Part shown: piece by piece, positions 3,698-64,000 of the stretch | Layout: each line of letters starts with the position of its first letter | How positions within the stretch are numbered: the stretch's first letter is position 1 | Assembly: GCA_017444615.1 (NCBI GenBank) | Contig: JAFSWF010000028.1 | Coordinates: forward strand, 634 to 64,633 | DNA: 64,000 bases | DNA from: Paludibacteraceae bacterium | GTDB taxonomy: Bacteria > Bacteroidota > Bacteroidia > Bacteroidales > Paludibacteraceae | Direction of reading: 5' to 3' | Made by a program: the position numbers and the translations under genes | The notes under the pieces: generated by a model | Databases searched by the model: none | What the model was told of the DNA's origin: nothing | What the model saw: the letters and a program-made list of their open reading frames with translations, nothing else

Positions 3698-4189
3698 ATG
3701 GCTAAATACATTGTAATGGCAGAAGAAGGCGAGCTGAGCTTGCTGGACAAAGCGCGTGAAGAATTAGGACTGGTTTTGGAGGGGGCTACGCTCATATACA
3801 CGGGCGTAGGTGCGATCAATGTTATAAGGAGTCTGCAACACATCGACCGTGAGGCAGAGATCTATAACATCGGCTATGCCGGAAGTGCGAACTTCGATAT
3901 CGGTACGTGGGCACAAGTGACAGAAGTGCGACTCAACCACCCCAATGTCACCTATAACGAACCAAAGCTCGAAATTCACGATTCACCATTCACCATTCAA
4001 AATTGCCGAAAGGCTATTTGTTATACGAACACCGATTTTGTACTCGCTTCCGACTACAAAGACTGCGTGTTTGACATGGAATTGGCGTTCATCGCGGCAT
4101 TGGGCTTCAAGAACCTCCATAGCTTCAAGTATGTGAGCGACAACTTATCGCTTCACTCCTACCATGACCTCACCCACGGCGTAGAATAA
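3698..4189 (+). CDS. nucleoside phosphorylase/nucleosidase-like (PNP_UDP_1 fold) protein
   Basis: 163 aa. GVGAIN, GYAGS and DMELAFIA resemble MTA/SAH-nucleosidase family blocks. Carries an in-frame heptamer array (HDSPFTIQN). Confidence 0.5.
   Translation: MAKYIVMAEEGELSLLDKAREELGLVLEGATLIYTGVGAINVIRSLQHIDREAEIYNIGYAGSANFDIGTWAQVTEVRLNHPNVTYNEPKLEIHDSPFTIQNCRKAICYTNTDFVLASDYKDCVFDMELAFIAALGFKNLHSFKYVSDNLSLHSYHDLTHGVE
3973..4007. repeat. 7-nt-period array (AATTCAC GATTCAC CATTCAC CATTCAA AATTGCC), in frame in CDS
   Basis: Read directly from the sequence; encodes EIHDSPFTIQNC. Confidence 0.8.
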
Positions 4190-4231
4190 ATGCCCAAATG
4201 GTAAATGGTAAATGACCAAATGGTAAATAGC
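4184..4231. repeat. AAATGGT/AAATGAC array filling the stop-to-start spacer
   Basis: GAATAAATGCCCAAATGGTAAATGGTAAATGACCAAATGGTAAATAGC. Contains the TAA stop of the upstream gene and ends at the rlmI ATG. Confidence 0.85.
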
Positions 4232-5479
4232 ATGACTACTGTCATTTTAAAGCCGCATAAAGACGAATCGCTGAAGCGTTTTCACCCTTGGGTGTTCAGC
4301 GGTGCCATTGCACGCATCGTTTTAGACGCTGCGCATAGCGAACCAGCCCCTGTCGAAGGCGAACTGGTGGCGGTACATTCAGCTACTAATGAGTTGTTAG
4401 GCGTCGGGCATTGGCAAATAGGCTCCATCGCCGTGCGAATCTTAGCCTTCGGCGTAGATTCCTTACCCTCCGATTTTTGGACGGAACGCATCCGCGCTGC
4501 CTATAAAGTGCGCGAAGCATTAGGCTTGATTAGACCGGATAATAATACCTTCCGCCTCGTCCATGGCGAAGGAGATTTTCTGCCCGGACTGATAGTGGAT
4601 ATCTACGCCGAAACGGCGGTTATTCAGGCGCACTCAGTAGGCATGCATCTTCACCGCCAAGAGATAGCACAAGCCATCCTATCGGCGGTGCCACAGGTAA
4701 AGAATGTCTATTATAAATCCGACGACACCCTACCCTTCAAAGCGCCCATCGAAGGCGATAAAACCGGTTGGCTAATAACTAACAGCCAACAGCCAATGGC
4801 CAATGAGTTCTGGTCCATGGAGAACGGTCTCTCGTTCCGCATCGACTGGCTTCGAGGACAAAAGACCGGTTTCTTCATCGACCAGCGGGAGAACCGCGCA
4901 TTAGTCGAACGCTATGCGGCAGGCAAGGATGTGCTGAATATGTTCTGTTACACCGGCGGATTCTCGTTGTACGCCCTCCGTGGCGGTGCCAAGACAGTAG
5001 ATTCGGTCGATGTCAGCCAAAAAGCCATTGAAATAGTAAAAGCGAATGTACAAAGAAACTTCCCCCGTCAGTCCAACCATCGAGCCATAACGGCGGACGC
5101 CTTTGACTTCCTCAATGAGCGAATAAATGCCCAAATGGCAAATGACCAAATGGTAAATGGTAAATGGTATGACCTCATCATCCTTGACCCGCCTGCCTTC
5201 GCCAAACACCGCGACGCTATCAAGAATGCCCTTCGTGGCTACCAACGCATCAATGCCAAAGCCATTGAGATGATCAGACCCGGAGGCATCCTCTTCACTT
5301 TCTCTTGCTCGCAAGCAGTGGACAAAGAGGCATTCCGTCTGGCCGTCTTTAGTGCCGCCGCACAAGTGGGACGCAAAGTGCGCATCCTCCATCAGCTCCA
5401 CCAACCCCAAGACCACCCCATCAACATCTACCACCCCGAAGGGGAATACCTGAAGGGGCTGGTTCTCTTCGTAGAATAA
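4232..5479 (+). CDS. rlmI: 23S rRNA m5C methyltransferase RlmI-like (PUA + class I SAM MTase)
   Basis: RFHPWVFSGAI N-terminus, GFFIDQRENR, NMFCYTGGFS, ILDPPAF. Start set at ATG 4232 because the upstream MVNDQMVNS is translated repeat DNA (alternative 4205). Two in-frame arrays lie inside. Confidence 0.8.
   Translation: MTTVILKPHKDESLKRFHPWVFSGAIARIVLDAAHSEPAPVEGELVAVHSATNELLGVGHWQIGSIAVRILAFGVDSLPSDFWTERIRAAYKVREALGLIRPDNNTFRLVHGEGDFLPGLIVDIYAETAVIQAHSVGMHLHRQEIAQAILSAVPQVKNVYYKSDDTLPFKAPIEGDKTGWLITNSQQPMANEFWSMENGLSFRIDWLRGQKTGFFIDQRENRALVERYAAGKDVLNMFCYTGGFSLYALRGGAKTVDSVDVSQKAIEIVKANVQRNFPRQSNHRAITADAFDFLNERINAQMANDQMVNGKWYDLIILDPPAFAKHRDAIKNALRGYQRINAKAIEMIRPGGILFTFSCSQAVDKEAFRLAVFSAAAQVGRKVRILHQLHQPQDHPINIYHPEGEYLKGLVLFVE
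4773..4807. repeat. 7-nt-period array (TAACAGC CAACAGC CAATGGC CAATGAG), in frame in rlmI
   Basis: Encodes ITNSQQPMANE. Same unit family as 52537-52571 in the opposite orientation. Confidence 0.8.
5121..5167. repeat. AAATGGY/AAATGAC array, in frame in rlmI
   Basis: GAATAAATGCCCAAATGGCAAATGACCAAATGGTAAATGGTAAATGG. Near-copy of 4184-4231. Encodes RINAQMANDQMVNGKW just before the ILDPP motif. Confidence 0.85.
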
Positions 5480-5482
5480 CAG

Positions 5483-5522
5483 CTTAACGGCTTAACAATT
5501 TAACAATTTAACCATTTAACGT
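5483..5522. repeat. 8-nt-period array (CTTAACGG CTTAACAA TTTAACAA TTTAACCA TTTAACGT) in spacer
   Basis: Occupies most of the rlmI-to-exonuclease spacer. Confidence 0.8.
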
Positions 5523-5528: not shown

Positions 5529-6416
5529 ATGAACCTCGTAGCATTTGACACCGAGACAACCGGATTAGACGTGCAGAAAGAGCACATCATCCAACTCTCT
5601 CTCATTAAGTTTGACACCGACACATGGGAAATCATCGGTCTGCGGGACTGGTATATTCTGCCAGACGTGCCCTTTACTATCCCTGCCGAAGCCGAAGCGG
5701 TGCATCATATCTCCAAAGCGTTCTTGCTCGAGCATGGCGTTAGTCTCAAGAGTATCTACAATGACTTCATCGCCTTTACCGCCGGCTGTGATTTTCTCAC
5801 CTATAACGGAAACGGCTACGACGCTCCTATCTTGCACTACAACCTCGTGCGGGCAGGATTGGATTTTGATTTCAACAACCGCACATGGTACGATGCTTTG
5901 TTGTTGGAACGCATCCATTCAGAAGGTCAAACAGACGAGAACGGTGAACGCTTGCATAATAACCTCACCGCCGCTTATACACGTTATTATGGTCATCCGT
6001 TCGAAGGAGCCCATAACTCCTTGGACGATGTGCGCGCCACCATCGAAGTATTCAAAGCACAAGTAGCGGCGCACGGATGGGCATGGGCGCAACGAGAAGA
6101 GTTTAATTTCATTTGCTATGACCGTTGGCTCACCAAAAAAGGCGGCTACTACTACCTCAACCAAGGTGCCCACAAAAACGAAAGCATCGAATCCATGCTG
6201 CGCATTGATAAGAGTTACCTCACATGGATTGTGGATAAATGCCAATGGACCGATGACCAAACACGTGCTATCATCGAACCCTATCTCGGACGCCACCCCA
6301 CAGACCAAGGCCAAAGCCAATGCCAACGCCGCCCCAAAGCCAAAACTCTTCCCTCTTCGCGTGGCAAAAAACGCAGCAAAGGAACTATCTCTGACGCCGA
6401 TTTGAGTTTATTCTAA
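5529..6416 (+). CDS. DEDDh 3'-5' exonuclease domain protein with C-terminal extension
   Basis: DTETTGL, YNGNGYDAPIL and HNSLDDVRAT exonuclease motifs. The basic tail is partly encoded by a 6-nt-period repeat. TAATG overlap with the next gene. Confidence 0.8.
   Translation: MNLVAFDTETTGLDVQKEHIIQLSLIKFDTDTWEIIGLRDWYILPDVPFTIPAEAEAVHHISKAFLLEHGVSLKSIYNDFIAFTAGCDFLTYNGNGYDAPILHYNLVRAGLDFDFNNRTWYDALLLERIHSEGQTDENGERLHNNLTAAYTRYYGHPFEGAHNSLDDVRATIEVFKAQVAAHGWAWAQREEFNFICYDRWLTKKGGYYYLNQGAHKNESIESMLRIDKSYLTWIVDKCQWTDDQTRAIIEPYLGRHPTDQGQSQCQRRPKAKTLPSSRGKKRSKGTISDADLSLF
6303..6346. repeat. 6-nt-period GCCAAN array in the exonuclease C-terminal tail
   Basis: GACCAAGGCCAAAGCCAATGCCAACGCCGCCCCAAAGCCAAAAC. 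Reverse-complement type of 10104-10136. Confidence 0.7.
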
Positions 6417-8335: not shown

Positions 8336-8407
8336 GGCCGGTTGGATGAGCGACTTAGTCAGCGGTCTGCAAAACCGTTCAGAGCGGTTTGACTCCGCTA
8401 CCGGCCT
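8336..8407 (+). tRNA. tRNA-Cys (anticodon GCA), no encoded CCA
   Basis: Acceptor GGCCGGT/ACCGGCC (perfect), anticodon arm GCGGT-CTGCAAA-ACCGT, 4-nt variable loop TCAG (G48 with G15, as in E. coli tRNA-Cys), T arm AGCGG-TTTGACT-CCGCT. D loop AGCGACTT lacks GG. Confidence 0.75.
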
Positions 8408-8410
8408 CAA

Positions 8411-8445: not shown

Positions 8446-8473
8446 TCTGATAGCTGAATGCTGACAGCTAAAC
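8446..8473. repeat. 7-nt-period array (TCTGATA GCTGAAT GCTGACA GCTAAAC) upstream of sufB
   Basis: Fills the gap between the tRNA-Cys terminator and the sufB ATG. Shares GAWTGCTGACAGCTAAA with 24842-24858. Confidence 0.8.
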
Positions 8474-8477: not shown

Positions 8478-9917
8478 ATGGACGAACTGATTACTGACAT
8501 AACGAACCAGGAGTACAAGTACGGCTTTACCACCGATGTTGAAACTGACGTCATTCCTGCGGGGCTGAATGAAGACATCATTCGGCTTATCTCGGCGAAG
8601 AAAAACGAACCCGAATGGCTCCTAACATTCCGTCTCAAAGCCTTCCGCAAATGGCAAACGATGACCGTTCCCACATGGGCACACCTCACTATCCCCGACA
8701 TCGACTTCCAAGCCATCTCCTACTACGCCGCCCCAAAAACAAAATCTTCAAATGACCAAATGGTAAATGACCTTGATCCCGAGATCGCCAAGACCTTCGA
8801 TAAACTCGGCATCCCATTAGAGGAACGGGCAGCCTTGGCGGGCAACATGGCAGTCGATGCCGTCATGGACTCAGTCTCCGTCAAGACTACCTTCCGCGAC
8901 ACCCTCGCCGAAAAAGGTATCATCTTCTGCTCTATCTCAGAGGCGGTCAAAGAGTACCCCGAATTGGTGCAAAAATACCTCGGTTCAGTAGTCCCACCCA
9001 CCGATAATTTCTATGCCGCACTCAACTCGGCCGTCTTCACCGACGGATCGTTCGTCTATGTGCCGAAAGGGGTGCGGTGTCCCATGGAACTAAGCACCTA
9101 TTTCCGCATCAATGCCGGCAAAACAGGTCAGTTCGAACGCACACTGCTCGTGGCGGATGAAGGAGCCTATCTCTCGTATTTAGAGGGTTGTACGGCGCCT
9201 ATGAGAGACGAAAACCAATTGCACGCCGCCATCGTCGAGATAGTGGTGCACAAAGATGCCGAAGTCAAATACTCCACCGTCCAAAACTGGTACCCGGGGG
9301 ACAAAGACGGCAAAGGTGGGATCTTCAATTTTGTCACCAAACGAGGTATTACCTACGAGAACGCACGCCTCTCTTGGACGCAAGTAGAAACCGGTTCCGC
9401 CATCACTTGGAAATATCCCTCTTGTATCCTTCGCGGCGATAACTCATCCGCGGAATTCTACTCCGTGGCCGTCACCAATAACCATCAGCAGGCAGATACC
9501 GGCACGAAGATGATTCATATCGGACGCAACACCCGCAGTCGTATCATCAGCAAAGGTATCTCGGCAGGCCAAAGCCAAAACGCCTACCGCGGACTCGTCA
9601 AAATGGGACGAAACGCACTCAACGCACGCAATTACAGCCAATGCGATTCGCTGCTCTTAGGCGATCAATGCGGCGCACATACCTTCCCCGATATGATCAT
9701 CGCTAACCCTACAGCCATCGTCGAACACGAAGCAACCACATCCAAGATCTCTGATGACCAACTCTTCTATTGCCGCCAACGCGGTATAGGCGTCGAAGAT
9801 GCCGTCGGACTCATCGTTAACGGCTATGCCAAAGAGGTGATGGACAAACTGCCCATGGAGTTTGCCGTCGAAGCCCAAAAACTGCTCCAAGTCTCCCTCG
9901 AAGGCTCCATCGGCTGA
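8478..9917 (+). CDS. sufB: Fe-S cluster assembly protein SufB
   Basis: Full-length SufB blocks ([31 protein letters not shown]). In-frame SSNDQMVN repeat insertion at 8748-8772. Confidence 0.95.
8748..8772. repeat. AAATGAC/AAATGGT array, in frame in sufB
   Basis: TCAAATGACCAAATGGTAAATGACC encodes SNDQMVND. Confidence 0.8.
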
Positions 9918-9938: not shown

Positions 9939-9994
9939 AAGAAAATTTTGCAAATAATCGTTCCGAAGGAAAAGAAAATTTTGCAAATAATCGT
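9939..9994. repeat. 23-nt direct repeat x2 (AAGAAAATTTTGCAAATAATCGT)
   Basis: Exact copies at 9939-9961 and 9972-9994, downstream of sufB. Confidence 0.85.
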
Positions 9995-10006
9995 GCGTAA
10001 GCTAAG

Positions 10007-10034
10007 AAAAAAGCGCTTTTTGGGCGCTTTTTTT
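10007..10034 (+). terminator. hairpin terminator after sufB
   Basis: AAAAAAGCGC-TTTTTGG-GCGCTTTTTTT. A near-identical module recurs at 49489-49513. Confidence 0.55.
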
Positions 10035-10043
10035 CGTCAAAAA

Positions 10044-10075
10044 CTTGCTTATTCCATTTTTTTGTTGTACCTTTG
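10044..10075 (+). promoter_or_regulatory. Bacteroidota sigma-A promoter
   Basis: CTTG (10044-10047), N20, TACCTTTG (10068-10075). Confidence 0.6.
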
Positions 10076-10079
10076 CTGC

Positions 10080-11963
10080 ATGAAAGGGAGATGGGTGTTC
10101 ATGGCTTTGGCTTTGGCGTTGGCTTTGGCGTTGGCAGCGCAGGAAAATACAGGGCGGAGATATATGCTTGACGATGTCATTTTAGATATTTACCGAGCCG
10201 CAACAGAATTGGGTGAGACGGATTATGAGCAGTTGCAAACGGACCTTTATGCCTTGTACGAGACCCCTATTGACCTCAATGCCACTACAGATGAAGAGTT
10301 ACAGCAGCTTCCTTTTCTCTCGCCGCATCAAATAGATGAGTTACTGGCCTACGCCGATCGGCATCCGTTTGAGTCCGTCTATGAACTGCAGCTCATCCCA
10401 TCGCTCACATCCTATGATATCCGTAATCTGCTGCCGTTTATTACAATCACCAATAACCAATCACCAATAACCAATCACCTCTACGCGCGGGAGGTGTTTC
10501 GCAATGCCAAGCATGAGGTTCTTACTCGTATAGATGCGCGGAATATAGAGGGGTTTGAAGGCACGGATCCTATGTATGTGCAAGGTCGGTATCGCTTTGA
10601 TTATCAGCGAAGGGTTGTTTTGGGTGCGCAGTTACGCAGACCGGCGGGCGGTGGGGCGCAAGATCTGCAATACGGCGCGTATCTGCAGCTTAAAGATATC
10701 GGTCCTTTGCACACACTGGTAGCCGGTAATTTTCAGGCTTCTTTTGGTCAAGGTCTGGTTCTGGCTTCCCCTTTCCATTCCGGCAAATCGGCTTACGTCA
10801 GCACAGTAGGTTTGCCGCAAGAAGGACTGCGTTATTACTCGTCGGTGGATGGCGAAGGCTTACACGGTGCCGGTACTACTTTTCGCTGGAAGTGGAACGG
10901 ACAGACACGCTTGGATGTGAGTGCGCTCTATTCGATGCGTCGGGCGAATGATAGCACCTGGCATCATCTGGTGGGCGCTAATGTGACCGTTCGTCATAAA
11001 CGACTACACGTTCAACTGACCGCTGTGGAGAACATCTGGTCGGATAGTATTCGTCCCTATCGGAATACCAATTATAACCGGCATTATTTCCGCGGTCGTA
11101 CGCAAGCGGTCATAGGCGTCTCTGCACGCTATAATCACGGTTGGTTCGATCTCTTCGGAGAAGTAGCCACCGCCCAAAACAGAGACCATTGGGGCGTAGG
11201 AACGCTCATCGGTAGTCGGTTCTACCCGACCGAGGGCGTGTCTTTGTTGGCGCTGTATCGCTATTATTCTCCGTATTTCGATAACGCCTTAGGCTATGCT
11301 TTTTCCGAGACTTCGCGCTTAGGCGATGAGAACGGAGGGTATCTGGGATTTGAACTGACGCGCTGGAAGAACTGGCGGGTTTGGGGATATGCGGATGTGT
11401 TTGGTTTTAGCGGACCCAAATACGGCATCCCCGATGCACCCTCTATAGGTTTTGATGCGTTGGTGGAAGTGTGTTATCGCTGGTTATCGCTGCGCCTTCG
11501 CGCCAAACAGAAAGGCGAGTTGAACACCTATATGACGCGGGCGCAATTCGATTGGATAGAAGGTCCATGGTCGCTACGAACCACCGCCGAAGCGAATCTC
11601 ACTCATCAGACGGAACTCCACTACGGCGTAACGCTCTATCAAGATGTAGCCTACCGGTTTCAGCAGGCACCGGTCTCCCTCCGCGGACGAGTGCAATTCT
11701 TCGATGCACGGGAGTGGAACAATCGTATCTATGCGTACGAACACGATGTGCTGTATGCGTTCTCTATTCCTGCGGTGTATGGCTTAGGCGGACGGGCGTA
11801 CTTATGCCTGAGATGGCAAATCATCCCGCAACTGGCGTTGTACTGCCGCGTGAGTGAGACCCTTTGGCAAAAAGCGTGGTACAGCGCGCATCATCCTTCT
11901 TGGAGCGGAAAAGGAATTCCTTCGCGAACAGACATTCACCTGCTTTTGAGAGCCACGCTGTAG
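10080..11963 (+). CDS. helix-hairpin-helix domain outer-membrane-type protein
   Basis: Signal-like MKGRWVFMALALALALALA, HhH/ComEA-like DLNATTDEELQQLPFLSPHQIDELLAY, then a long beta-rich region. ATG 10080 lies 4 nt after the -7 box, so ATG 10101 is an alternative start. ORF-track start 9948 rejected. Confidence 0.6.
   Translation: MKGRWVFMALALALALALAAQENTGRRYMLDDVILDIYRAATELGETDYEQLQTDLYALYETPIDLNATTDEELQQLPFLSPHQIDELLAYADRHPFESVYELQLIPSLTSYDIRNLLPFITITNNQSPITNHLYAREVFRNAKHEVLTRIDARNIEGFEGTDPMYVQGRYRFDYQRRVVLGAQLRRPAGGGAQDLQYGAYLQLKDIGPLHTLVAGNFQASFGQGLVLASPFHSGKSAYVSTVGLPQEGLRYYSSVDGEGLHGAGTTFRWKWNGQTRLDVSALYSMRRANDSTWHHLVGANVTVRHKRLHVQLTAVENIWSDSIRPYRNTNYNRHYFRGRTQAVIGVSARYNHGWFDLFGEVATAQNRDHWGVGTLIGSRFYPTEGVSLLALYRYYSPYFDNALGYAFSETSRLGDENGGYLGFELTRWKNWRVWGYADVFGFSGPKYGIPDAPSIGFDALVEVCYRWLSLRLRAKQKGELNTYMTRAQFDWIEGPWSLRTTAEANLTHQTELHYGVTLYQDVAYRFQQAPVSLRGRVQFFDAREWNNRIYAYEHDVLYAFSIPAVYGLGGRAYLCLRWQIIPQLALYCRVSETLWQKAWYSAHHPSWSGKGIPSRTDIHLLLRATL
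10104..10136. repeat. 6-nt-period GCTTTG/GCGTTG array encoding ALALALALALA
   Basis: GCTTTGGCTTTGGCGTTGGCTTTGGCGTTGGCA forms the hydrophobic core of the predicted signal peptide. Confidence 0.8.
10444..10478. repeat. 7-nt-period array (CAATCAC CAATAAC x2.5), in frame in CDS
   Basis: Encodes ITNNQSPITNH. Reverse-complement family of ATTGGTN arrays. Confidence 0.85.
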
Positions 11964-13328: not shown

Positions 13329-13863
13329 GATACAACCCGAGCAGTCCCATTGGTGGGGCTTTGCCGCCATGCCCGATGAGTTGGAATACCCCTTTAACGG
13401 AGAAGATAATCCGCTGACCTTAGTATGCCAATTCCACCACGGCGAAGGAATGATTTATGTGTTTGCCGACCTCAATTATTTCCTCGGCGATTATGAAGCA
13501 GACGGCGGTCATATCGGCGAATGGGACGAACGGTTCTTTCGCGTACTCTATTCGCCAACCCGAGAGAACCTGCATATTCATGAAATAGTGGACGCTAACG
13601 GTGCATCGGCCGTACCGCAGGCAGAGCCGCTTGATGCACCGGCACAACGAGGCGAAGAATCGGGCGTGTTACAGCCGGCTTCTTGTTGGACGGACGAGTT
13701 GGAACAAGAGTTCCCGGGATACCAGGTATTGCTGGAATTGGATGAAAACGACGAGATAGGGCTGCGGTTCTATGACTGCGGAACCCTCTTCTTCCTCATC
13801 CAACCTAAAGACCTCGAGGCGAAGCGATTTGACAAAACCAAATGCGTGTTATATTCTTATTAA
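13312..13863 (+). CDS. DUF1963 (YwqG-like) family protein
   Basis: Blocks NPLTLVCQF and GLRFYDCGTLFFLIQPKDL match my memory of the DUF1963 family. Start is uncertain (ATG 13312 or 13321). The track start 13252 would overlap the upstream gene by 77 nt. Confidence 0.5.
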   Translation: MTPMHEIQPEQSHWWGFAAMPDELEYPFNGEDNPLTLVCQFHHGEGMIYVFADLNYFLGDYEADGGHIGEWDERFFRVLYSPTRENLHIHEIVDANGASAVPQAEPLDAPAQRGEESGVLQPASCWTDELEQEFPGYQVLLELDENDEIGLRFYDCGTLFFLIQPKDLEAKRFDKTKCVLYSY

Positions 13864-13890
13864 AGTCGAAAGTCAAAAGTCGAAAGTTTT
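13864..13890. repeat. 7-nt-period array (AGTCGAA AGTCAAA AGTCGAA AGTTTTA) filling spacer
   Basis: Spans from just after stop 13863 to ATG 13891. Confidence 0.85.
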
Positions 13891-16467: not shown

Positions 16468-16526
16468 AAAATCATTTTCTCATTTATTCATTTACCATTT
16501 GGTCATTTATTTTACCATTTGGTCAT
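16468..16526. repeat. NCATTT-type array filling the pgk-stop to DUF3127-start spacer
   Basis: ATCATTTTCTCATTTATTCATTTACCATTTGGTCATTTATTTTACCATTTGGTCATT. Reverse complement of the AAATGGT/AAATGAC family. Confidence 0.85.
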
Positions 16527-20632: not shown

Positions 20633-20670
20633 CTTGTTATTTACGATTTATACATTTACCATTTGTTCAT
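20633..20670. repeat. ACGATTT/ACCATTT/TTCATTT array filling spacer
   Basis: CTTGTTATTTACGATTTATACATTTACCATTTGTTCAT lies between stop 20671-20673 and start 20632. Confidence 0.8.
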
Positions 20671-49385: not shown

Positions 49386-49413
49386 ATCAGCCTTCAGCCA
49401 TCAGCTTTCAGAC
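49386..49413. repeat. 7-nt-period array (ATCAGCC TTCAGCC ATCAGCT TTCAGAC) in cysS leader
   Basis: Between the cysS promoter and its ATG. Confidence 0.85.
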
Positions 49414-49424
49414 CTTTGCGGGTG

Positions 49425-55900: not shown

Positions 55901-55977
55901 TAAAAAATTTGCTACAAAAAGTATATATATACTATGTATATATATAGTAAGAATGACTTTTTTGCACAAAAAGGGCG

Positions 55978-56021
55978 GTTATCCTATGGGTATCCTATGG
56001 TTATCCTATGGGTATCCTATG
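55978..56021. repeat. 11-nt-period tandem array x4 (GKTATCCTATG)
   Basis: Four contiguous units, followed by an 11-nt-phased G-rich stretch (about 56058-56100) and the palindrome GGCAAAT-GGC-ATTTGCC. Confidence 0.9.
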
Positions 56022-56193
56022 GTAAGGGTTCGTGTCGGTCTCGACTTTTGTCGTGAAAGGGGGCGGAAATGGGCGGGTAAGGGGTGTGGCGAGGGCGGCA
56101 AATGGCATTTGCCTGAAATAGACATAGAAGAAAGGGATTAAATTCCGGAACAATGGAAAAAGATGCGTGTTTTGCAAAAAAAATGGCAAATTA

Positions 56194-56298: not shown

Positions 56299-56847
56299 AT
56301 GATTTATAAACTGACATTTTCGTGTGAAGAAGGCGATCCGAATTTCCGCCGAGTATTTGAGGCCGATGCGGACGCTACGTTCTTAGATTTGCACAATGCA
56401 ATTCTGAAATCCGTTGACTATCCGGATGATCAAATGACATCTTTCTTCCTTTGCAACGACGAGTGGGAGAAGGGTCAGGAAGTGACGCTGGTTGAGATGG
56501 ATTCGAGTTTTGAGTACGACAACATGGTGATGAATGAGACGCGTTTGAGTGACTTGCTGGAAGAACAAGGTCAACGGTTGATTTACATCTTCGATCCGAT
56601 GTTCGAGCGCTATTTCTTCGGTAGTCTGAAGGAGATTAAAGCGGGTTCGATGAACGGTGTGGAGTGTGTAGAAAGCCGTGGTAAAGCGCCGAAACAGCTA
56701 AAGAGCGAGGATCCGTTTGCCGGTTTAGGAGGCAAGGGCGGCGATGACTTCGAGTTCGACGATGAGTTTAAGGACGAGTTGGATCTGAACGACATCGACA
56801 TGGAAGGCTTCCAAGATTTGAGTTGGGAAGACGGAAGCATGTTTTAA
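56299..56847 (+). CDS. pRiA4b ORF-3-like family protein with acidic tail
   Basis: IYKLTFSCEEGDPNFRRVFEADADATFLDLHNAI resembles the PF07929-type N-terminal block, from memory. C-terminus is D/E/F rich. Confidence 0.45.
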   Translation: MIYKLTFSCEEGDPNFRRVFEADADATFLDLHNAILKSVDYPDDQMTSFFLCNDEWEKGQEVTLVEMDSSFEYDNMVMNETRLSDLLEEQGQRLIYIFDPMFERYFFGSLKEIKAGSMNGVECVESRGKAPKQLKSEDPFAGLGGKGGDDFEFDDEFKDELDLNDIDMEGFQDLSWEDGSMF

Positions 56848-56880
56848 TTGATAATTGATAATTGACAATTGATAATTAAC
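56846..56880. repeat. 7-nt-period array (AATTGAT x2, AATTGAC, AATTGAT, AATTAAC)
   Basis: Starts inside the TAA stop of the upstream gene and sits before miaA. Confidence 0.9.
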
Positions 56881-56891
56881 AAAGCGTTCTA

Positions 56892-57935
56892 GTGGCTTTC
56901 GTGCAAGGTTTGGAGTCTGTGCGGATTCAGCAAATTTGTACCAAGCCCAACAAACTTTTTGTGCATAGAACTTTATTGTTGATAGTAGGTCCGACGGGGG
57001 TTGGAAAGACGGAGTTGGCGTTGCGGGTAGCGGAACGGTATGGTAGTCCGATTGTGAATTGCGACAGCCGTCAGGTGTACCGTGAGATACCCATTGGCAC
57101 CGCAGCTCCTACGGCGGAGGAACTGGCTCGGGTTAAGCACTATTTCGTGGGTTGCAAAGAGTTGGAGGAAGACTACAATGCCGGTCAGTACGAACGCGAC
57201 GCGTTGGCGTTGTTAGACCAACTGTTTGAAGACCATGAGGTCGTGGTGATGAGTGGCGGTTCGATGCTGTATGCTGATGCCGTTTGTGACGGATTAGACG
57301 ATATTCCGAATGTGCCGGAGGACATTCGAAAGAAAGTAGCCTACCCTCGGTCCCTCCCAAGAGGGAGGGAAGAAAGTCGCGAAGAATGGCTGAGTTGGTT
57401 GCAGGCGGAGGTGCAACGATTAGATCCGGAGTATTGGAAGATCGTGGACCAACATAATCCTGCCCGCTTGGCGCATTGCGTAGAGTTGTGCTTGACGACA
57501 GGAAAGCCGTATTCATCGCTGCGTACAAAGGAATCAGGAATCAGGAGTCAGGAGTCAGGAGACCGGCCGTTTCGGATTATTAAGGTAGGTTTAGAGCGTC
57601 CGCGGGAAGAATTGTACGCACGAATCAACCGTCGTGTAGAACAGATGATTGCGGACGGGTTGGTGGAAGAGGCGAAACGGGTTTATCCAAAGCGAGCTTT
57701 GAATAGTTTACGAACGGTAGGTTACCGCGAACTATTTGCTTATTTCGATGGTGAGTACGATTTGGAGCGCGCCATTGAGTTGATTCAACAAAACACGCGT
57801 CACTATGCCAAGCGTCAGATAACCTGGTATCGACGCGACAAAGAGATACATTGGCTACAAGCCGAAAGAGATTATGAAACGAATATACGTATTATTGACC
57901 ATTTGCTTGGCGATGGTGGCGTGCAAGAAGAATGA
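56892..57935 (+). CDS. miaA: tRNA dimethylallyltransferase
   Basis: GPTGVGKT, DSRQVYREIPIGTAAP. Start uncertain (GTG 56892 or an internal GTG near 56962). One hairpin insert and one heptamer array lie in frame. 62-nt overlap with the next gene. Confidence 0.9.
   Translation: MAFVQGLESVRIQQICTKPNKLFVHRTLLLIVGPTGVGKTELALRVAERYGSPIVNCDSRQVYREIPIGTAAPTAEELARVKHYFVGCKELEEDYNAGQYERDALALLDQLFEDHEVVVMSGGSMLYADAVCDGLDDIPNVPEDIRKKVAYPRSLPRGREESREEWLSWLQAEVQRLDPEYWKIVDQHNPARLAHCVELCLTTGKPYSSLRTKESGIRSQESGDRPFRIIKVGLERPREELYARINRRVEQMIADGLVEEAKRVYPKRALNSLRTVGYRELFAYFDGEYDLERAIELIQQNTRHYAKRQITWYRRDKEIHWLQAERDYETNIRIIDHLLGDGGVQEE
57339..57372. repeat. GC-rich hairpin mini-element, in frame in miaA
   Basis: GCCTACCCTCGGTCCCTCCCAAGAGGGAGGGAAG. 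Perfect 8-bp stem TCCCTCCC/GGGAGGGA. Read as AYPRSLPRGREE. Confidence 0.8.
57530..57564. repeat. 7-nt-period array (GGAATCA x2, GGAGTCA x2, GGAGACC), in frame in miaA
   Basis: Encodes KESGIRSQESGD. Confidence 0.9.
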
Positions 57936-58905: not shown

Positions 58906-60425
58906 ATAAACCCGATGTGATTTTTGAGACCTCGTGGGAGGTCTGTAACCGCGTAGGCGGAATCTATGCAGTATTGAGTACTCGTGCGGCTTCGATGCAA
59001 GCCGAGCACCCCGATAAGGTGTTTTTCTTTGGACCGGATTTTGGTGCGCATAGCGATATTTATTTTCAAGAGGACAAGAGTCTGCTGAAAGATTGGTTAT
59101 TGGTAATTGGTCATTGGTCATTGAAGATTCCTGTGCGTGTGGGTCGATGGAATGTGCCGGGGAACCCGATTGCTATCTTGCTGAAGTTCGATGCGTTATG
59201 GCCGAAGAAGGATGCTATTTATGCGTGGGCCTGGGAGAAATTTCAGGTTCAGAGCCACGCGGCTTATGGCGATTATGACGAGTCGTGTTTGTTTGGCTAC
59301 GCGGCAGGAATGGTGATGGAGAGCCTTTATAATTGGTTATTGGTGACAGGTGATAAGTTAAAGGTTTGTGCGCATGCTAATGAGTGGCAGACGGCGTTTT
59401 CGATATTCTACTTGCAAGACCACTGTCCGGCGATTGCAACGCTGTTTACCACTCACGCCACCGGAATTGGTCGTTCGATAGCCGGCAACGGTAAGCCGCT
59501 TTACGATTATTTCGAGGGGTATAACGGTGACCAGATGGCGGCGGAGTTGAATATGGTCAGCAAGCACTCAGTGGAGAAACAAGCGGCACACCATGCAGAT
59601 TGCTTTACGACCGTCAGTTATATCACCGCCCGTGAGTGTAAGCAGTTATTGGACAAAGAGGTAGATATCGAGACGCCGAACGGCTTTGAGCCTACTTTTG
59701 TGCCGAAGGGGAAGGCGTTTGACAAGCGTCGCGACGAAGCGCGAGAGTTATTGCGAAAGGTAGCGGGCGAGCAGTTAGGCGGAGTGGTACCTAAGAACGC
59801 GTTGCTGCTTTGTATCTCCGGTAGGCAGGAGTGGAAGAACAAAGGTATAGACATCTTTGCCTCGGCGATGGATAAGTTGGCACAGAAGATTTACCATAGC
59901 GGCCAGCCGGAAAAGGAGGTCGTGGCGTTTGTGATGATTCCTTATTTGGACCGTGCGCCGATGCGAATTGGCAAAGTGAGTGTGGTTTATGTGCCGTATT
60001 ACTTGGACGGTCAAGATCCGCTTTTTGGTAAGAGTTACTATGACCTGCTGATCGGCATGGATATAACGGTTTTCCCGAGTTACTATGAGCCTTGGGGTTA
60101 TACGCCGTTAGAGTCGTGTGCTTTCCATGTGCCGACTATCACCACTTCTTTGGCGGGCTTTGGCGAATGGGCGGCTCGGCAGAAAGAGCAAGGAGGCGTG
60201 GTAGTGGTTGAGCGTACGGACTCTAATTTCGACCAAGTGGCCGAACAAGTGGCGGAGGCGTTATTGCGTTTTGACCGATTGAGCGGTGAAGAGAAAGCGC
60301 AGGCACGTGAACAGGCCGCAGCGTTGGCTAAGAAAGCCGATTGGAAGCATTTCTTCCAATACTACCGCAAGGCCTATGACATTGCGCTGAAGAAAGCGAA
60401 GGTGAGGGTAAAGAGTAATGGGTAA
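58902..60425 (+). CDS. glycogen synthase-like glycosyltransferase (GT3-type)
   Basis: FETSWEVCNRVGGIYAVL N-terminal signature. In-frame LLVIGHWSL array. The stop codon lies inside a heptamer array. ATGA overlap with the upstream gene. Confidence 0.7.
   Translation: MNKPDVIFETSWEVCNRVGGIYAVLSTRAASMQAEHPDKVFFFGPDFGAHSDIYFQEDKSLLKDWLLVIGHWSLKIPVRVGRWNVPGNPIAILLKFDALWPKKDAIYAWAWEKFQVQSHAAYGDYDESCLFGYAAGMVMESLYNWLLVTGDKLKVCAHANEWQTAFSIFYLQDHCPAIATLFTTHATGIGRSIAGNGKPLYDYFEGYNGDQMAAELNMVSKHSVEKQAAHHADCFTTVSYITARECKQLLDKEVDIETPNGFEPTFVPKGKAFDKRRDEARELLRKVAGEQLGGVVPKNALLLCISGRQEWKNKGIDIFASAMDKLAQKIYHSGQPEKEVVAFVMIPYLDRAPMRIGKVSVVYVPYYLDGQDPLFGKSYYDLLIGMDITVFPSYYEPWGYTPLESCAFHVPTITTSLAGFGEWAARQKEQGGVVVVERTDSNFDQVAEQVAEALLRFDRLSGEEKAQAREQAAALAKKADWKHFFQYYRKAYDIALKKAKVRVKSNG
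59092..59126. repeat. 7-nt-period array (ATTGGTT ATTGGTA ATTGGTC x2 ATTGAAG), in frame in the glycogen synthase-like gene
   Basis: Encodes DWLLVIGHWSLK. A shorter relative lies at about 59331-59352. Confidence 0.9.
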
Positions 60426-60442
60426 TTGGTAAAGAGTAAAAA
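60408..60442. repeat. 7-nt-period array (GTAAAGA GTAATGG GTAATTG GTAAAGA GTAAAAA) spanning a stop codon
   Basis: Encodes the last residues (VKSNG) and the TAA stop (60423-60425) of the upstream gene. Ends 1 nt before the next ATG. Confidence 0.9.
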
Positions 60443-60443
60443 T

Positions 60444-62138
60444 ATGAGAAAGATTTTGTTAGTTGGATTGATGGCGGTATGTGTGATGCCTGTTTGGTGT
60501 TGCACGAATTTCATCGTAGGTAAGAACGCTTCGGCGGATGGTAGTACGATCATCTCTTATGCAGCGGACTCGTACGGTATGTATGGTTTTTTGCATTTCT
60601 CGCCGGCGGCGGATTGGCCTGATGGTAGTGTGCGCGAGGTGTTCGATTGGGACACCGGTCGTCCGTTGGGTTCTATTCCCCAAGTGGCACACACCTACAA
60701 AGTGGTGGGTAATACGAACGAACACCAAGTGACGATTGGCGAGACCACATGGGGTGGACGAGAAGCGTTATGGGACACCGTAGGTATTGATTACGGAAGC
60801 CTCATTTATATTGCGTTGGAACGCAGTAAGACTGCCCGTGAAGCTATCGAATGTATGATTTCACTGGTGAATGAGTTTGGCTACGCCTCCGAAGGCGAGT
60901 CGTTCTCTATCGGTGACCCTAACGAGGTGTGGGTCATGGACTTAATCGGTAAAGGGGCAGGACAGAAAGGCGCTAACTGGGTAGCCGTTCGTATTCCTGA
61001 CGAGGCTATTTGCGGTCATGCTAACCAAGCCCGTATCACCCAGTTACCGCAGGGCAAAGCCAAACTGACCAAAGAGCAGAAACGGTTGCAGAAAAAGTTG
61101 AACTGCGTTTGTCACGGCGACTGGCTATGGGACAAGAACCTGATTGCTGCGGCGCGAGAGAAGGGTTATTTCTCCGGCAAAGACGCGGATTTCAATTTTC
61201 AGGCAGCCTTTAATCCCTTTGATTTTACGGGTTTGTATGTGTGCGAGGCGCGTGTGTGGTCATTCTTCCGCCATTTCTCCTCGGAGATGGAGCCGTATTT
61301 CGATTATGCCACAGGCGCTACGTACTTGGCCACCGGTGGTAAAGACGCCGGAACGCCGATGCCGTTGTGGATCATCCCTGAGCGCAAAGTGAGTGTGCAA
61401 GATATCAAGGAATGTATGCGGGATGAGTACCAAGGTACGCCGCTGGACATCACCCAAGGCACCGATGCGGGTCCGTGGAACAGTAAGTTACGTTTTGGTA
61501 GCTTAGGATTTAAGTTGAAAGATACGGAAGATACGACGAAGACGACGCAGTACTGGTACGAGCGTCCGACGGCTACGCAGCAGACGGCTTGGTCGTTTGT
61601 GTCACAAATGCGAAACGGTAAGCGTGGCGTGTTCTGGTTTGGCGTGGACGACGCGGCATGTAGCTGCTATGTGCCCATGTACAGTTGTATCAACCATGTG
61701 CCGGAGTGTTTTGCCGAAGGCAATGGAGACAGTTATACGTTCTCCCCTACCAGTGCATGGTGGACGTTCAATATCGTTGCCAACTGGGCTTATACCAAGT
61801 ACAGCCGTATGTACCCGCATATCCGCGAAATGCAATCTATCTGGGACGATAAGTTCAACGCCCAGCAAGCGGGTGTGGACGAACAAGCGGCGGGTCTGAG
61901 CGAAGAAGAGGCGTGTGCGTTCCTTACTTCGTACTCCTGCGCGCAAGCGGAGAACGTGGTGGCCGATTGGCAACGGTTGGGTATTTATCTGATGACGAAG
62001 TTCTTAGACGGTCAGGAACGCAAAGAGGAGAACGGTCAGTTCAAACGTAATCCGTACGGGCATAGTTGTGGTCCGAACCGTTTGCCAATGCCGGAGAAGT
62101 TCCTCCGCTTAGTGGCTGATGAAGTAATACATGAGTGA
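60444..62138 (+). CDS. C69 family dipeptidase
   Basis: Signal peptide ending at nucleophile Cys (WCCTNFIVGKNASADGST). Start ATG 60444 (track 60426 begins in repeat DNA). Confidence 0.85.
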   Translation: MRKILLVGLMAVCVMPVWCCTNFIVGKNASADGSTIISYAADSYGMYGFLHFSPAADWPDGSVREVFDWDTGRPLGSIPQVAHTYKVVGNTNEHQVTIGETTWGGREALWDTVGIDYGSLIYIALERSKTAREAIECMISLVNEFGYASEGESFSIGDPNEVWVMDLIGKGAGQKGANWVAVRIPDEAICGHANQARITQLPQGKAKLTKEQKRLQKKLNCVCHGDWLWDKNLIAAAREKGYFSGKDADFNFQAAFNPFDFTGLYVCEARVWSFFRHFSSEMEPYFDYATGATYLATGGKDAGTPMPLWIIPERKVSVQDIKECMRDEYQGTPLDITQGTDAGPWNSKLRFGSLGFKLKDTEDTTKTTQYWYERPTATQQTAWSFVSQMRNGKRGVFWFGVDDAACSCYVPMYSCINHVPECFAEGNGDSYTFSPTSAWWTFNIVANWAYTKYSRMYPHIREMQSIWDDKFNAQQAGVDEQAAGLSEEEACAFLTSYSCAQAENVVADWQRLGIYLMTKFLDGQERKEENGQFKRNPYGHSCGPNRLPMPEKFLRLVADEVIHE

Positions 62139-62164
62139 GAGTTGAGAGATAAGAGTTTAGAGAT

Positions 62165-64000
62165 ATGAAACATTTTACAGAATACAAACGTTTAGATTTG
62201 CCTGCGTTGAGCCGCGAGGTGTTGGCGCAATGGGAGCAAGAAGGATTATTTGAGAAGAGTGTGAGCACCCGCGAGGGACATCCGCAGTTTTTGTTCTTCG
62301 AAGGACCGCCTTCGGCGAATGGTATGCCGGGTATTCACCATGTGATGGCGCGTACTATCAAAGATACGTTCTGCCGGTTCAAAACTATGCAAGGGTATCA
62401 GGTTCGCCGCAAAGCCGGTTGGGACACCCATGGTCTGCCGGTGGAGTTAGGTGTGGAGAAAATGCTTGGTATCACCAAAGAGGACATCGGTAAGAAAATA
62501 TCCGTTGACGAGTACAACGCTGCTTGCCGCCGTGAGGTGATGAAATACACCAAAGAGTGGACCAACCTGACCAAACAAATGGGGTATTGGGTGGATCTGG
62601 ATGATCCGTATATTACGTACGATAATAAATATATCGAGACGCTTTGGTACTTGCTCAAGGAGCTCTATAAGAAAGGCTACTTGTATAAAGGTTACACTAT
62701 TCAGCCCTATTCGCCTGCCGCAGGAACGGGATTGAGTTCGCACGAACTCAATCAACCTGGTTGCTACCGTGACGTGAAGGATCTCACTTGTACGGCCCGC
62801 TTTAGAGTCAAGTCCAATGACCAACGACTATCGACCAACGCCCCTACTTACATCATCGCTTGGACGACGACGCCGTGGACATTACCGTCTAATACGGCAC
62901 TTTGTGTGGGTCCGAAGATTGATTACGTGGAGGTAGAGGCACCGAATGGTGACCATGTTATTTTGGCGGAGGCGCGTTTGGAGGCGTATAAGAAAGAGCT
63001 GTGTGCCGAAGGGGAAGAACCGAAAATTGTGGCCCGTTACAAAGGGTCTGATTTGGTAGGTTTGGAGTACGAACCGCTTTTCCCGTGGGTTAAACTGGAG
63101 AACGCTTTCCGCGTCATCCCCGGAGACTACGTAACGACTGAAGATGGTACCGGTATCGTACATATCGCACCTACTTTCGGAGCCGACGACAAGAAAGTGG
63201 CAGACGCGGCCGGTGTGCCAGGGCTCTATTTCCAAACCAAGAACAACGGTCCTCGTCCGATGGTGGATTTTACCGGTAAGTACTGGAAAGTGGAGGACCT
63301 CGATGAAGCGTGGGTAAAAGAGAACCTGAATGTGGAGTTATACGGCAAGTACGCCGGTCGCTTCGTCAAGAACGCATATGACCCGAATTTGACGGAGAAA
63401 GATGAGAGTTTGGACTTGCATTTATGCCTCGAGATGAAAGCCGATGGTCGTCTGCTTAAGACCGAGAAACATGTTCACTCGTACCCGCATTGTTGGCGAA
63501 CCGACAAGCCTGTCTTGTATTATCCGTTGGACTCTTGGTTCATCCAATCGACGAAGGCGCGCGAGGAGATGATTGCGCTCAATCAGACGATTAACTGGCA
63601 ACCCGAAAGCACCGGTACCGGTCGTTTTGGTCAGTGGCTGAACAACCTCAACGATTGGAACCTCAGCCGTTCGCGTTACTGGGGAACACCGTTGCCTATC
63701 TGGCGTACGGAAGACGGAAGCGAAGAGATTTGTATCGGTTCCATTGCAGAATTATTCGATGAAATCGACAAATCTGTGCAGGCAGGCTTCATGCAAGCCA
63801 ACCCGTGGCCGAAGCATAAAGTGGGTGATTATAGCAAAGCCAACTATGATCCTTCCGTCATCGATCTGCACCGTCCGTATGTGGATGGTATTATCCTTGT
63901 TTCGCCAAGCGGCAAACCGATGAAACGCGAACTGGACCTTATCGACGTGTGGTTCGATTCGGGTGCGATGCCTTATGCGCAGAATCACTACCCCTTCGAG
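62165..64000 (+). CDS. ileS: isoleucine--tRNA ligase (3' end outside window)
   Basis: Not in the ORF track because it runs off the window. Hand translation from ATG 62165 gives MKHFTEYKRLDLPALSREVLAQWEQEGLFEKS...PSANGMPGIHH...WTTTPWTLPSN...WFDSGAMPYAQ, with no stop through 64000. In-frame SNDQRLSTN array. Confidence 0.95.
   Translation, partial: MKHFTEYKRLDLPALSREVLAQWEQEGLFEKSVSTREGHPQFLFFEGPPSANGMPGIHHVMARTIKDTFCRFKTMQGYQVRRKAGWDTHGLPVELGVEKMLGITKEDIGKKISVDEYNAACRREVMKYTKEWTNLTKQMGYWVDLDDPYITYDNKYIETLWYLLKELYKKGYLYKGYTIQPYSPAAGTGLSSHELNQPGCYRDVKDLTCTARFRVKSNDQRLSTNAPTYIIAWTTTPWTLPSNTALCVGPKIDYVEVEAPNGDHVILAEARLEAYKKELCAEGEEPKIVARYKGSDLVGLEYEPLFPWVKLENAFRVIPGDYVTTEDGTGIVHIAPTFGADDKKVADAAGVPGLYFQTKNNGPRPMVDFTGKYWKVEDLDEAWVKENLNVELYGKYAGRFVKNAYDPNLTEKDESLDLHLCLEMKADGRLLKTEKHVHSYPHCWRTDKPVLYYPLDSWFIQSTKAREEMIALNQTINWQPESTGTGRFGQWLNNLNDWNLSRSRYWGTPLPIWRTEDGSEEICIGSIAELFDEIDKSVQAGFMQANPWPKHKVGDYSKANYDPSVIDLHRPYVDGIILVSPSGKPMKRELDLIDVWFDSGAMPYAQNHYPFE
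62814..62841. repeat. 7-nt-period array (CCAATGA CCAACGA CTATCGA CCAACGC), in frame in ileS
   Basis: Encodes SNDQRLSTN. Same unit family as the murF array in the opposite genomic orientation. Confidence 0.8.

Follow-up and report, generated by a model that had tools for sequence, protein, structure and literature searches.

The DNA analyzed here (the window) is a stretch of 64,000 nucleotides from contig JAFSWF010000028.1 of a Paludibacteraceae bacterium, which is recorded in the NCBI protein records as 'MAG: ... [Paludibacteraceae bacterium]', and this study deals with the short tandem arrays of heptanucleotide units that are scattered over it. The genes of the window are ordinary housekeeping genes: rlmI, a DEDD exonuclease gene, sufB, pgk, recO, uvrB, ddl, murF, bamA-ompH-ompH, lpxD, cysS, gyrB, cca, mrp/apbC, miaA, a gene for a glgA-like glycosyltransferase, a C69 dipeptidase gene and ileS. 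The nearest species-level genomes were rumen or gut Bacteroidales and Paludibacteraceae metagenome-assembled genomes (MAGs), with a MiaA identity of ∼70%. It should be noted that the window and all compared relatives are metagenome assemblies; the loci of relatives used in comparisons are designated by L-numbers (L001 and so on). A scan of the window with Rfam returned two tRNAs and nothing else, so the arrays are not explained by any known RNA family.

By using Tandem Repeats Finder (TRF, score at least 30), 23 non-overlapping period-7 arrays could be identified in the window, an approximately 20-fold excess over 30 dinucleotide-preserving shuffles (mean 1.13, maximum 5). Periods 8, 9, 11 and 12 showed merely a modest rise over the shuffles. 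In a stricter self-match scan, eight period-7 arrays were found as compared with none in 20 shuffles, and any other period gave at most two. An earlier note on this DNA, made from the sequence alone, had described more than 30 mini-arrays. Merging its list with the TRF rows gave 32 blocks, 3-4 of which are dubious, so the figure was of the right order but slightly generous. A repeat was present at every position it had named; those at 4773, 8446, 8748 and 62814 were weak, with 2-3 imperfect units, and the family it had called AAATGGT/AAATGAC proved to be a mixture of 7- and 8-nt units with a best period of 15 nt. The block at 5477-5521, unlike the heptamer arrays, has a period of 8. All ten peptides that had been quoted as encoded by arrays were indeed in frame, in rlmI (two), ORF (open reading frame) 9948-11963, lpxD, murF and cca and likewise in mrp, miaA, the glgA-like gene and ileS. 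We observed 12 arrays inside ORFs; the earlier note had counted at least 12 within genes. However, the description of the window as saturated with arrays inside conserved genes overstated the coding share, because maximal ORFs cover ∼94% of the window and about half of the arrays lie in the remaining ∼6%. The arrays inside ORFs, which from 4773-4807 onward are in-frame arrays, are the following:

3974-3999, + strand: ATTCACC, 3.7 copies, in the unannotated ORF 3698-4189
4773-4807, + strand: AACAGCC, weak, in rlmI (peptide SQQPMAN)
5121-5169, + strand: AAATGACC/AAATGGT in rlmI (NDQMVNG); a 9-aa insertion relative to E. coli RlmI
8748-8772, + strand: weak array in the variable loop of sufB (SNDQMVND)
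10444-10479, + strand: CAATCAC/CAATAAC, complement of ATTGGTG, in ORF 9948-11963 (NNQSPITNH)
26895-26926, - strand: array in murF (NDQRQTTNDK); the loop is 4 aa longer than in E. coli MurF
46423-46457, - strand: sense GTCAATT in the N-terminal domain of lpxD (LSIINCQLA)
52536-52571, - strand: CAGCCAA in cca (ANGQQPTANS)
55551-55585, - strand: CACCAAT in the mrp/apbC linker, FeS_assembly_P / ParA domains (SPTTNHQSPI)
57529-57564, + strand: GGARTCA, 4-4.7 copies, in the MiaA loop (ESGIRSQESG); 21 nt more than the 18-nt baseline; a hot spot
59092-59126, + strand: ATTGGTN in a loop of the glgA-like glycosyltransferase (LLVIGHWSL)
62814-62841, + strand: CCAAYGA, weak, in ileS (SNDQRLSTN)

The arrays in spacers, leaders and other intergenic DNA are the following:

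4184-4231, + strand: spacer array, AAATGGT/AAATGACC (7+8 nt); holds the stop codon of ORF 3698-4189 and extends up to the rlmI start (4232, NCBI PGAP annotation)
5477-5521, + strand: spacer array, TTAACNNN, period 8; opens with the stop codon of rlmI and closes 7 nt short of the start of the exonuclease gene
8446-8473, + strand: leader array, GCTGAMA family, weak; 4 nt 5' of the sufB start and 3' of tRNA-Cys
13862-13890, + strand: spacer array, AAAGTCG; whole spacer from the stop of 13252-13863 to the start at 13891
16468-16526, - strand: spacer array, AAATGGT family (sense on the - strand); whole 59-nt spacer from the pgk stop to the start of a DUF3127 gene
20633-20673, - strand: spacer array, AAATGGT family; from the stop of the polyprenyl synthase gene to the start of the next gene (0 nt)
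24821-24855, - strand: GAATACT/GCTGACA array between divergent genes, with the uvrB start 6 nt downstream of it
25541-25586, - strand: AAATGGT family array in intergenic DNA, 146 nt 3' of the stop codon of gene 25733-26629
29239-29269, - strand: GCTGAAN family array (sense), immediately 3' of an ompH stop codon
30365-30397, - strand: spacer array, AATTGAY, with a 14-nt higher-order period, from the bamA stop to the ompH start
40758-40786, + strand: weak array, rich in purines, 7 nt 5' of the start at 40794
44722-44752, - strand: spacer array, ATCGTAC family; lies between the stop codon of 44753-45658 and the start codon of 44001-44717 (4 nt)
49386-49416, - strand: leader array, GCTGAAR (sense); the start of cysS lies 12 nt downstream
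56845-56882, + strand: spacer array, TAATTGA; opens with the stop of a PRiA4_ORF3-like gene, upstream of miaA
60406-60442, + strand: GTAAAGA/GTAATGG array; contains the stop of the glgA-like gene and ends 1 nt before the C69 peptidase start (60444)
62136-62165, + strand: spacer array, TGAGAGT; reaches from the stop codon of the C69 gene to the start of ileS (62165)

A total of 14 arrays in the window end 0-12 nt from a start codon, and ∼9 of them also begin at, or contain, the stop codon of the upstream gene. At the operon junctions 4184-4231, 13862-13890, 16468-16526, 20633-20673, 60406-60442 and 62136-62165 the array is the entire spacer. Start-codon calls conflict beside arrays, with rlmI starting at 4205 or 4232 (424 aa in ENA, 415 aa in NCBI PGAP) and miaA at 56892 or 56961 (347 and 324 aa, respectively); ATG, GTG and TTG codons within arrays thus lead to spurious N-terminal extensions in gene calls. 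The tRNA-Cys (GCA) gene at 8336-8408 is an ARAGORN call and is not in the Rfam gathering-threshold list. It lies between a TAnnTTTG-type promoter and sufB, and is followed by a hairpin with a T-run and then by the heptamer array.

Unit families recurred at distant sites and in both orientations, as had been noticed before. Since they occur in non-coding DNA as well as in ORFs, in either orientation and in all three reading phases, the earlier view that these are DNA-level elements, not evolved protein repeats, was borne out. Identical unit classes were found at different sites of the same genome in 44 pairs, whereas 1.3-3.6 were expected and the maximum of the null was 8. The commonest family was ATTGGTG in spacers and its complement, CACCAAT, in ORFs. 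When units were aligned with regard to rotation and strand, a weak core of A-W-W-G plus three variable bases could be observed. Single-linkage clustering at no more than one mismatch chained all units into one family and gave no usable classification. The possibility that the arrays are merely frequent genomic heptamers was ruled out, as the median ratio for single heptamers outside arrays was 1.10. The density of period-7 arrays was 38.6 per 100 kb in this clade (43 loci, 526 kb), compared with 11.0 in other Bacteroidota (mostly from three Bacteroides loci) and 6.4 in other phyla, and among the periods examined the enrichment in the clade was restricted to period 7. Three tandem copies of ATTGGTG were also present in 10 viral contigs, whose GC content ranged from 36% to 74%, so these matches are uninformative on this clade. 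The composite AAATGACC/AAATGGT had no match among viral contigs.

Comparison with relatives provided information on how the arrays arise. At the junction upstream of miaA, the spacer is 1 nt in L003, L007 and L008, and arrays of differing families are present in the window, L004, L005, L006 and L009; these families (AATTGAY, CAATCAC, AAAGTCG, ATTGGTG and GCTGAAT) all occur elsewhere in the window too. Within MiaA, a loop that measures 18 nt in most relatives and in every outgroup member of the Bacteroidota holds arrays in at least 17 loci. They belong to many families, including CACAATK, CAGCCNT, CAGAATA, CGAAAGN, GGCTAAA and GCCAAGA, and add 15 to 99 nt; the added length is in every case a multiple of 3 but not of 7 or 21. 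Taxa with an insert are dispersed over the MiaA tree: an insert is present in the window and missing from its sister L062, and L006 has one whereas L003, L007 and L008 lack it. The empty loop retains an outgroup-like T-x-x-x-K-K/E sequence, which together with the scattered distribution indicates many independent gains at this site. The array in the MiaA loop of L035 was apparently born locally from A-rich baseline sequence. A second variable segment of MiaA, 'AYPRSLPRGREESREEW' (window ∼57290-57340), is longer in the window, L001 and L005 than elsewhere among the relatives and has no obvious heptamer periodicity.

Similar observations were made for other genes. The 90% protein clusters of most array-bearing proteins contain 1-2 members. 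SufB proteins with an identity of ∼92% are between 477 and 500 aa long and differ almost solely in the array loop of the window, the contents of which are NDQMV, ITNHQSPIT, PTANSQQ and similar peptides; in relatives whose SufB is at least 90% identical, this loop has arrays of other families or an additional unit. Two loops of the glgA-like gene bear arrays, and the AAAGTCG array (ESRKSKV) is common to L001 and L009 with unequal copy numbers. In the signal-peptide core of the C69 peptidase, many relatives have pyrimidine-rich arrays (CTTTCAA, GTATTCA and CTCTCGC). Relative to solved structures, the array sites are longer by 9 aa in RlmI, 6 aa in MiaA, 4 aa in MurF and 3 aa in LpxD, and the SufB array falls in a variable loop. 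Solved CCA homologues gave no alignment across the cca array site, and mrp orthologues were non-syntenic in the compared loci, so that orthologues do not set the edges of the mrp insert. These comparisons show the arrays to be insertions which, when coding, lie in variable loops, a linker or signal peptides. The orthologue check proposed in the earlier note thus came out in favor of insertion into variable loops rather than conserved ancestral sequence, and shuffles of the window spoke in favor of a real excess. In L048, a radical-SAM-like ORF with a CxxxCxxC motif (1518-2759, - strand) contains two separate CACCAAT arrays (NHQSPITNHQSPI...), one of which directly follows the cluster-binding motif and makes the protein 14 aa longer there than in L066.

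Relatives also contained other inserts. A second class of in-frame inserts (45 and 63 nt) consists of CGGTCT(G/A)NCAG repeats and short GAAR-loop hairpins, for example GCCCGAAGGGC, and was found in L007 (10467-10529 and 14759-14803) and at the glgA-like/C69 junction of L037. This class also adjoins arrays in L009, L036, L040, L047 and L055, without enrichment in the window. As a candidate core of a larger element, GACCGCTTCGCT, which lies beside arrays in L009, L036, L040 and L047, was rejected (8 occurrences in the window as compared with 5.9 expected), as were the CGGTCTNNCAG GAAR-hairpin in-frame inserts of relatives (12 and 11.3, respectively). A two-hairpin element of 42-49 nt (TTAGCCCTAAAGGGCACGATTATTTGRCACAGCCAAATTTTC) was observed in L042 (1948-1996) and L051 (9915-9963 and 10566-10606). 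Both of its locations are within CACAATT arrays, namely that of the junction upstream of miaA and, read in frame, that of the MiaA loop. None is present at the corresponding site of L004. From its sequence and placement it looks like a tiny mobile element targeting arrays, and its presence within arrays at two sites suggests that some mobile DNA may recognize them.

We then compared array lengths between close genomes. In strain L033, which is 99.88% identical to the window over 17.7 kb, none of 10 arrays had changed; this strain-level comparison rests on one other near-identical assembly and implies that the arrays are not hypervariable. In pairs that are 95-98% identical, most indels were located in arrays. 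Non-coding arrays differed by single 7-nt units (L042 and L051; also L007 and L008, which are 92.9% identical). Coding differences that could be cleanly aligned were larger: L048 and L066 differ by 42 nt (6 units) in the array of the radical-SAM-like ORF and by a 21-nt tandem duplication in the glgA-like loop that holds the window array 59092-59126, and the SufB protein P0017 has exactly one extra 15-nt composite unit relative to the window. A 21-nt array difference was also found between L004 and L042. Thus, the argument of the earlier note that copy-number changes other than multiples of three units would shift the frame of essential genes agrees with clean coding differences of 21 or 42 nt, or one 15-nt composite, and non-coding differences of 7 nt. 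For some other array indels flagged as genic, the raw alignment gave lengths that are no clean multiples of three; in the case of the 28-nt indel between L056 and L073, the flanks are apparently offset by 2 nt, so that the net change would be 30 nt. Whole arrays may also be present or absent, as L007 has a 36-nt AAATGGT/AAATGACC array that L008 lacks, and this composite family is shared by six window sites. On the basis of these data, slippage by whole units resizes existing arrays. At the 5' end of the C69 dipeptidase gene of L008 (13494-13560), there are two CTTTCAA units fewer than in L007, and therefore no in-frame start upstream of the catalytic Cys; a frameshift of natural origin, a pseudogene or an error in the MAG consensus may explain this.

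The orientation of arrays was also not random. On the sense strand of spacer arrays, G exceeded C in 29 cases and C exceeded G in 9 (p = 0.0017), a bias that may be inflated because the clade-wide spacer and ORF classes use maximal ORFs, in which stop-free leader arrays may hide as N-termini. A manual tally of the window, where starts were mostly supported by homology or the gene caller, gave ∼11 arrays with more G, 1-2 with more C and few ties. The bias of spacer arrays followed the downstream start codon (17:3), not the upstream stop codon, and was gone far from starts. Stop codons in all three frames were found on 24 of 42 sense strands of spacer arrays, compared with 7 of 42 antisense strands. 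In ORF arrays the composition was reversed (C over G, 65:38); stop codons dictate which strand is usable in ORFs. Where ORF arrays have no stop codon on either strand, it was mostly the purine-rich strand that served as sense in loops (19:7); a purine-rich strand in loops and a pyrimidine-rich one in signal peptides fits selection on residue type. These statistics show a selection filter on both position and orientation. The sense strand of spacer arrays was A/T-rich and C-poor (A.39, C.08, G.20, T.33). Its predicted RNA folding energy was -0.063 kcal/mol per nt, as compared with -0.030 for composition-matched shuffles. The idea that spacer arrays are specially unstructured was rejected, as they were no less structured than such shuffles, and their low RNA structure is due to base composition alone.

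With regard to known repeat systems, the earlier note had found no described mechanism or name for these elements. This was incorrect, because dispersed heptanucleotide tandem repeats are an established class that includes STRR elements (short tandemly repeated repetitive sequences), long simple sequence repeats (SSR) and TAACTGA repeats. STRR heptanucleotides were reportedly described from heterocystous cyanobacteria in 1990, and cyanobacterial STRR are said to have been treated again in 1997; their canonical units are CCCCAGT, TTGGTCA and CAACAGT. They are tandem 7-nt units in several families per genome, dispersed and mostly between genes, and the window arrays likewise are dispersed heptamers of many families. 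In contrast with STRR, the host here belongs to the Bacteroidota (a Paludibacteraceae MAG) and not to heterocystous cyanobacteria, the families are different and more numerous, the arrays are short (3-6 units), and a large share are read in frame inside protein genes. Tandems of CCCCAGT and CAACAGT were absent from the window, and two copies of TTGGTCA occurred merely inside an ATTGGTN array. Rickettsia palindromic elements were reportedly found in 2000 in frame in conserved protein genes, at surface-exposed positions, and small dispersed repeats are said to have been described from cyanobacteria in 2008. Both resemble the arrays in lying in frame in conserved, even essential genes whose function is kept, and in the occurrence of nested insertions. 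However, those elements consist of palindromic or hairpin-forming units of fixed length, whereas the arrays are direct repeats of variable unit number without inverted repeats; the folding energy of the arrays was low, at the level of composition-matched shuffles, and their lengths varied by units.

As related in papers that cite it, the study of Mrázek et al. (2007) found heptanucleotides to be the most abundant class of long SSR (units of 5-11 nt) in many prokaryotes and proposed a polymerase-related slippage preference (MacGregor, 2015, PMC4679880; Rehm, 2015, PMC4692102), with multiple-of-three units likeliest in coding regions (PMC4679880). Judged from these accounts, the arrays share with long SSR the statistical excess, the predominance of heptanucleotides, the slippage mechanism and whole-unit polymorphism (7, 21 and 42 nt and the 15-nt composite), but 7-nt units are common in coding regions here, and Bacteroidales do not appear in the accounts as a highlighted lineage. 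TAACTGA repeats lie just upstream of starts in Beggiatoaceae, cyanobacteria and five Bacteroidetes including Paludibacter propionicigenes, and CspB was described as binding heptamer repeats with one protein per heptamer (MacGregor, 2015, PMC4679880). Similar to our arrays, they comprise 2-6 heptamer copies a few nucleotides upstream of starts in an orientation constrained by stop codons (the corresponding forward placement was seen here in 14 arrays and in the ratio of 29:9), the frequency of the unit as a singleton is no predictor, and Paludibacteraceae are represented. They differ in having a single unit, of which no tandem was found in the window or in 526 kb of clade loci, whereas dozens of families are present here, in-frame coding arrays are a major part of them, and gain, loss and unit-number change could be seen by comparison. 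Searching the literature on heptanucleotide repeats in Bacteroides or STRR in ORFs revealed nothing beyond MacGregor (2015). The combination of many-family heptamers in gut and rumen Bacteroidales, in-frame positions in essential genes, hot-spot loops and a three-unit rule looks to be undescribed, as does the density of the arrays.

On the basis of these results, we suggest that the arrays are probably lineage-specific heptanucleotide repeats of the STRR or long-SSR type in a clade of uncultured, Paludibacteraceae-like Bacteroidales from rumen and gut, with units of 7 and sometimes 8 nt, which are resized by slippage, seeded by copying, filtered by selection and largely neutral or selfish. First, replication slippage would make arrays grow and shrink by whole units, which is the step that the close genomes show. 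Second, unit families already present would be copied to new sites, often A-rich ones of low complexity, for instance through ectopic template switching or through gene conversion; we infer such copying from the recurrence of families, the shared composite structure and the presence or absence of whole arrays. Third, purifying selection would spare arrays at harmless positions and orientations, so that they may be retained either as a whole intercistronic spacer or 5' leader, with the G-over-C strand and stop codons in three frames, or in a stop-free orientation and in frame in surface loops, linkers and signal-peptide cores, with hydrophilic residues in loops and hydrophobic ones in signal peptides. 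Finally, the length changes that persist in coding arrays would be confined to multiples of three (3 or 6 units, or a single 7+8 composite). We regard the arrays as the main source of spacer DNA and loop-length variation, and not as dedicated regulatory devices.

Several observations weigh against this explanation. For the seeding step, the analysis revealed neither a donor-recipient pair nor a target-site signature nor an enzyme. That the MiaA loop was hit repeatedly could reflect a sequence-targeted process instead of tolerance alone. The A-W-W-G core has 5.27 bits as compared with at most 4.17 in nulls, and could point to a common binding factor or a mechanistic preference. The start-tracking bias would not be predicted by a purely neutral model and leaves room for a role in translation initiation, and the use of maximal-ORF classes may inflate the orientation bias. 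In addition, replication-strand effects were not separable from gene orientation in the data.

An alternative, which we consider unlikely, is that spacer arrays are functional cis elements of mRNA leaders and that the in-gene copies are by-products. Use of the Shine-Dalgarno sequence is largely lacking in Bacteroidota. The arrays would be predicted to bind S1, a cold-shock protein or a protein with an RNA recognition motif, or to serve as A/U-rich standby sites for initiation or re-initiation. The 14 arrays that end within 12 nt of a start codon, the 17:3 bias that follows it, the A/T-rich and C-poor sense strand and the weak A-W-W-G core at 7-nt spacing are all in favor of such a role, and the same placement has been reported for TAACTGA repeats, for which binding of S1, Csp or Csr proteins was proposed (MacGregor, 2015, PMC4679880). 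However, one junction carries many unrelated families across species and close relatives have no spacer there, the families are shared with ORF arrays, the low RNA structure is wholly due to base composition, and part of the orientation bias may be an ORF-calling artefact. A mixed possibility, to which we give similarly little weight, is a family-templated copy-and-paste process, driven by an enzyme, an RNA template or a polymerase with a 7-nt register that prefers A-W-W-G, together with co-option of start-proximal arrays for initiation or re-initiation.

It is rather improbable that a dedicated mobile-DNA mechanism (a transposase, a recombinase, a reverse transcriptase-like enzyme or an RNA template) inserts ready-made arrays at preferred sites, in which case the arrays would be mobile elements of miniature size, comparable to the in-frame palindromic elements of Rickettsia or to the small dispersed repeats of cyanobacteria. 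Such a mechanism would account for the genome-specific families at many sites (44 pairs against a null maximum of 8), the presence or absence of whole composite-family arrays between genomes that are 93% identical, the repeated hits in the same loops of MiaA and SufB and the TTAGCCCTAAAGGGCACGATTATTTGRCACAGCCAAATTTTC element within CACAATT arrays in L042 and L051. On the other hand, the arrays showed neither terminal inverted repeats nor target-site duplications nor conserved ends, their lengths form a continuum with the single-unit changes that slippage predicts, no transposase or reverse transcriptase gene was seen in the 64-kb window, and some arrays, such as the one in the MiaA loop of L035, apparently arose locally from A-rich baseline sequence.

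It is highly improbable that the arrays are contingency loci in which unit-number changes switch genes or alter their expression at high frequency (phase variation). As in the contingency loci of Haemophilus and Neisseria, repeat units not divisible by three lie within ORFs and their slippage would shift the frame. The two-unit difference between L008 and L007, which leaves the C69 signal peptide without an in-frame start, and the single-unit variation of non-coding arrays among close genomes would also fit. Nevertheless, the hosts are housekeeping or essential genes (sufB, murF, lpxD, cca, miaA, ileS, rlmI and mrp) and not genes for surface structures, host interaction or restriction-modification, the arrays are short, with 3-6 imperfect units, and cleanly aligned coding differences are in-frame multiples. 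High-frequency switching was not seen at 99.88% identity (0 of 10 arrays), and the one possible frameshift, in L008, is perhaps a MAG consensus error or a pseudogene. The probability is negligible that the arrays were produced by errors of assembly or sequencing, or are low-complexity sequence that arose by chance: although all sequences come from metagenome assemblies, identical arrays occur in independent assemblies (L033 and L034; NCBI and ENA records) and arrays in dozens of MAGs from different studies, reading frames are kept and the excess over shuffles is ∼20-fold.

Some repeats of other types were also observed in the window. Tandem arrays with a period of 11 are present at 40455-40501 (ATATGAGCTAT, 4.3 copies), 40544-40614 (GTAAGTGCAAA, 6.5 copies) and 55977-56023 (TATCCTATGGG, 3.9 copies). 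They are located in the two large intergenic regions of the window, where TAnnTTTG promoter motifs of the Bacteroidetes type follow downstream, and are unrelated to the heptamer arrays; their helical-repeat spacing suggests that they may be regulator-binding sites or curved DNA. An A/T-rich direct repeat of 32 nt (2.2 copies, 3610-3676) is located between tRNA-Met and ORF 3698-4189. Two codon-compatible repeats with hexamer or dodecamer units, TGGCTT/TGGCGTTGGCTT in ORF 9948-11963 (10102-10135) and CCAAAG in the exonuclease tail (6305-6330), are ordinary in-frame low complexity and separate from the heptamer class.

The arrays have practical consequences for genome analysis. Array codons mislead start-codon calling, array-encoded low-complexity peptides inflate apparent protein divergence, and the 7-nt register within genes brings a latent risk of frameshifts to the assembly and annotation of MAGs. 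In a broader context, the origin and function of bacterial heptanucleotide repeats have been a question since the cyanobacterial STRR were described, and this clade offers a natural experiment, with dozens of species and strains, filled and empty orthologous sites, and unit changes at 2-5% divergence. If the copy-and-paste process proved true, seeding would occur at preferred sites, and repeatedly in loops of essential genes, in a Bacteroidales clade that is poor in Shine-Dalgarno sequences. Such repeats can dominate both the intercistronic spacer DNA and the loop-length indels of essential conserved proteins.

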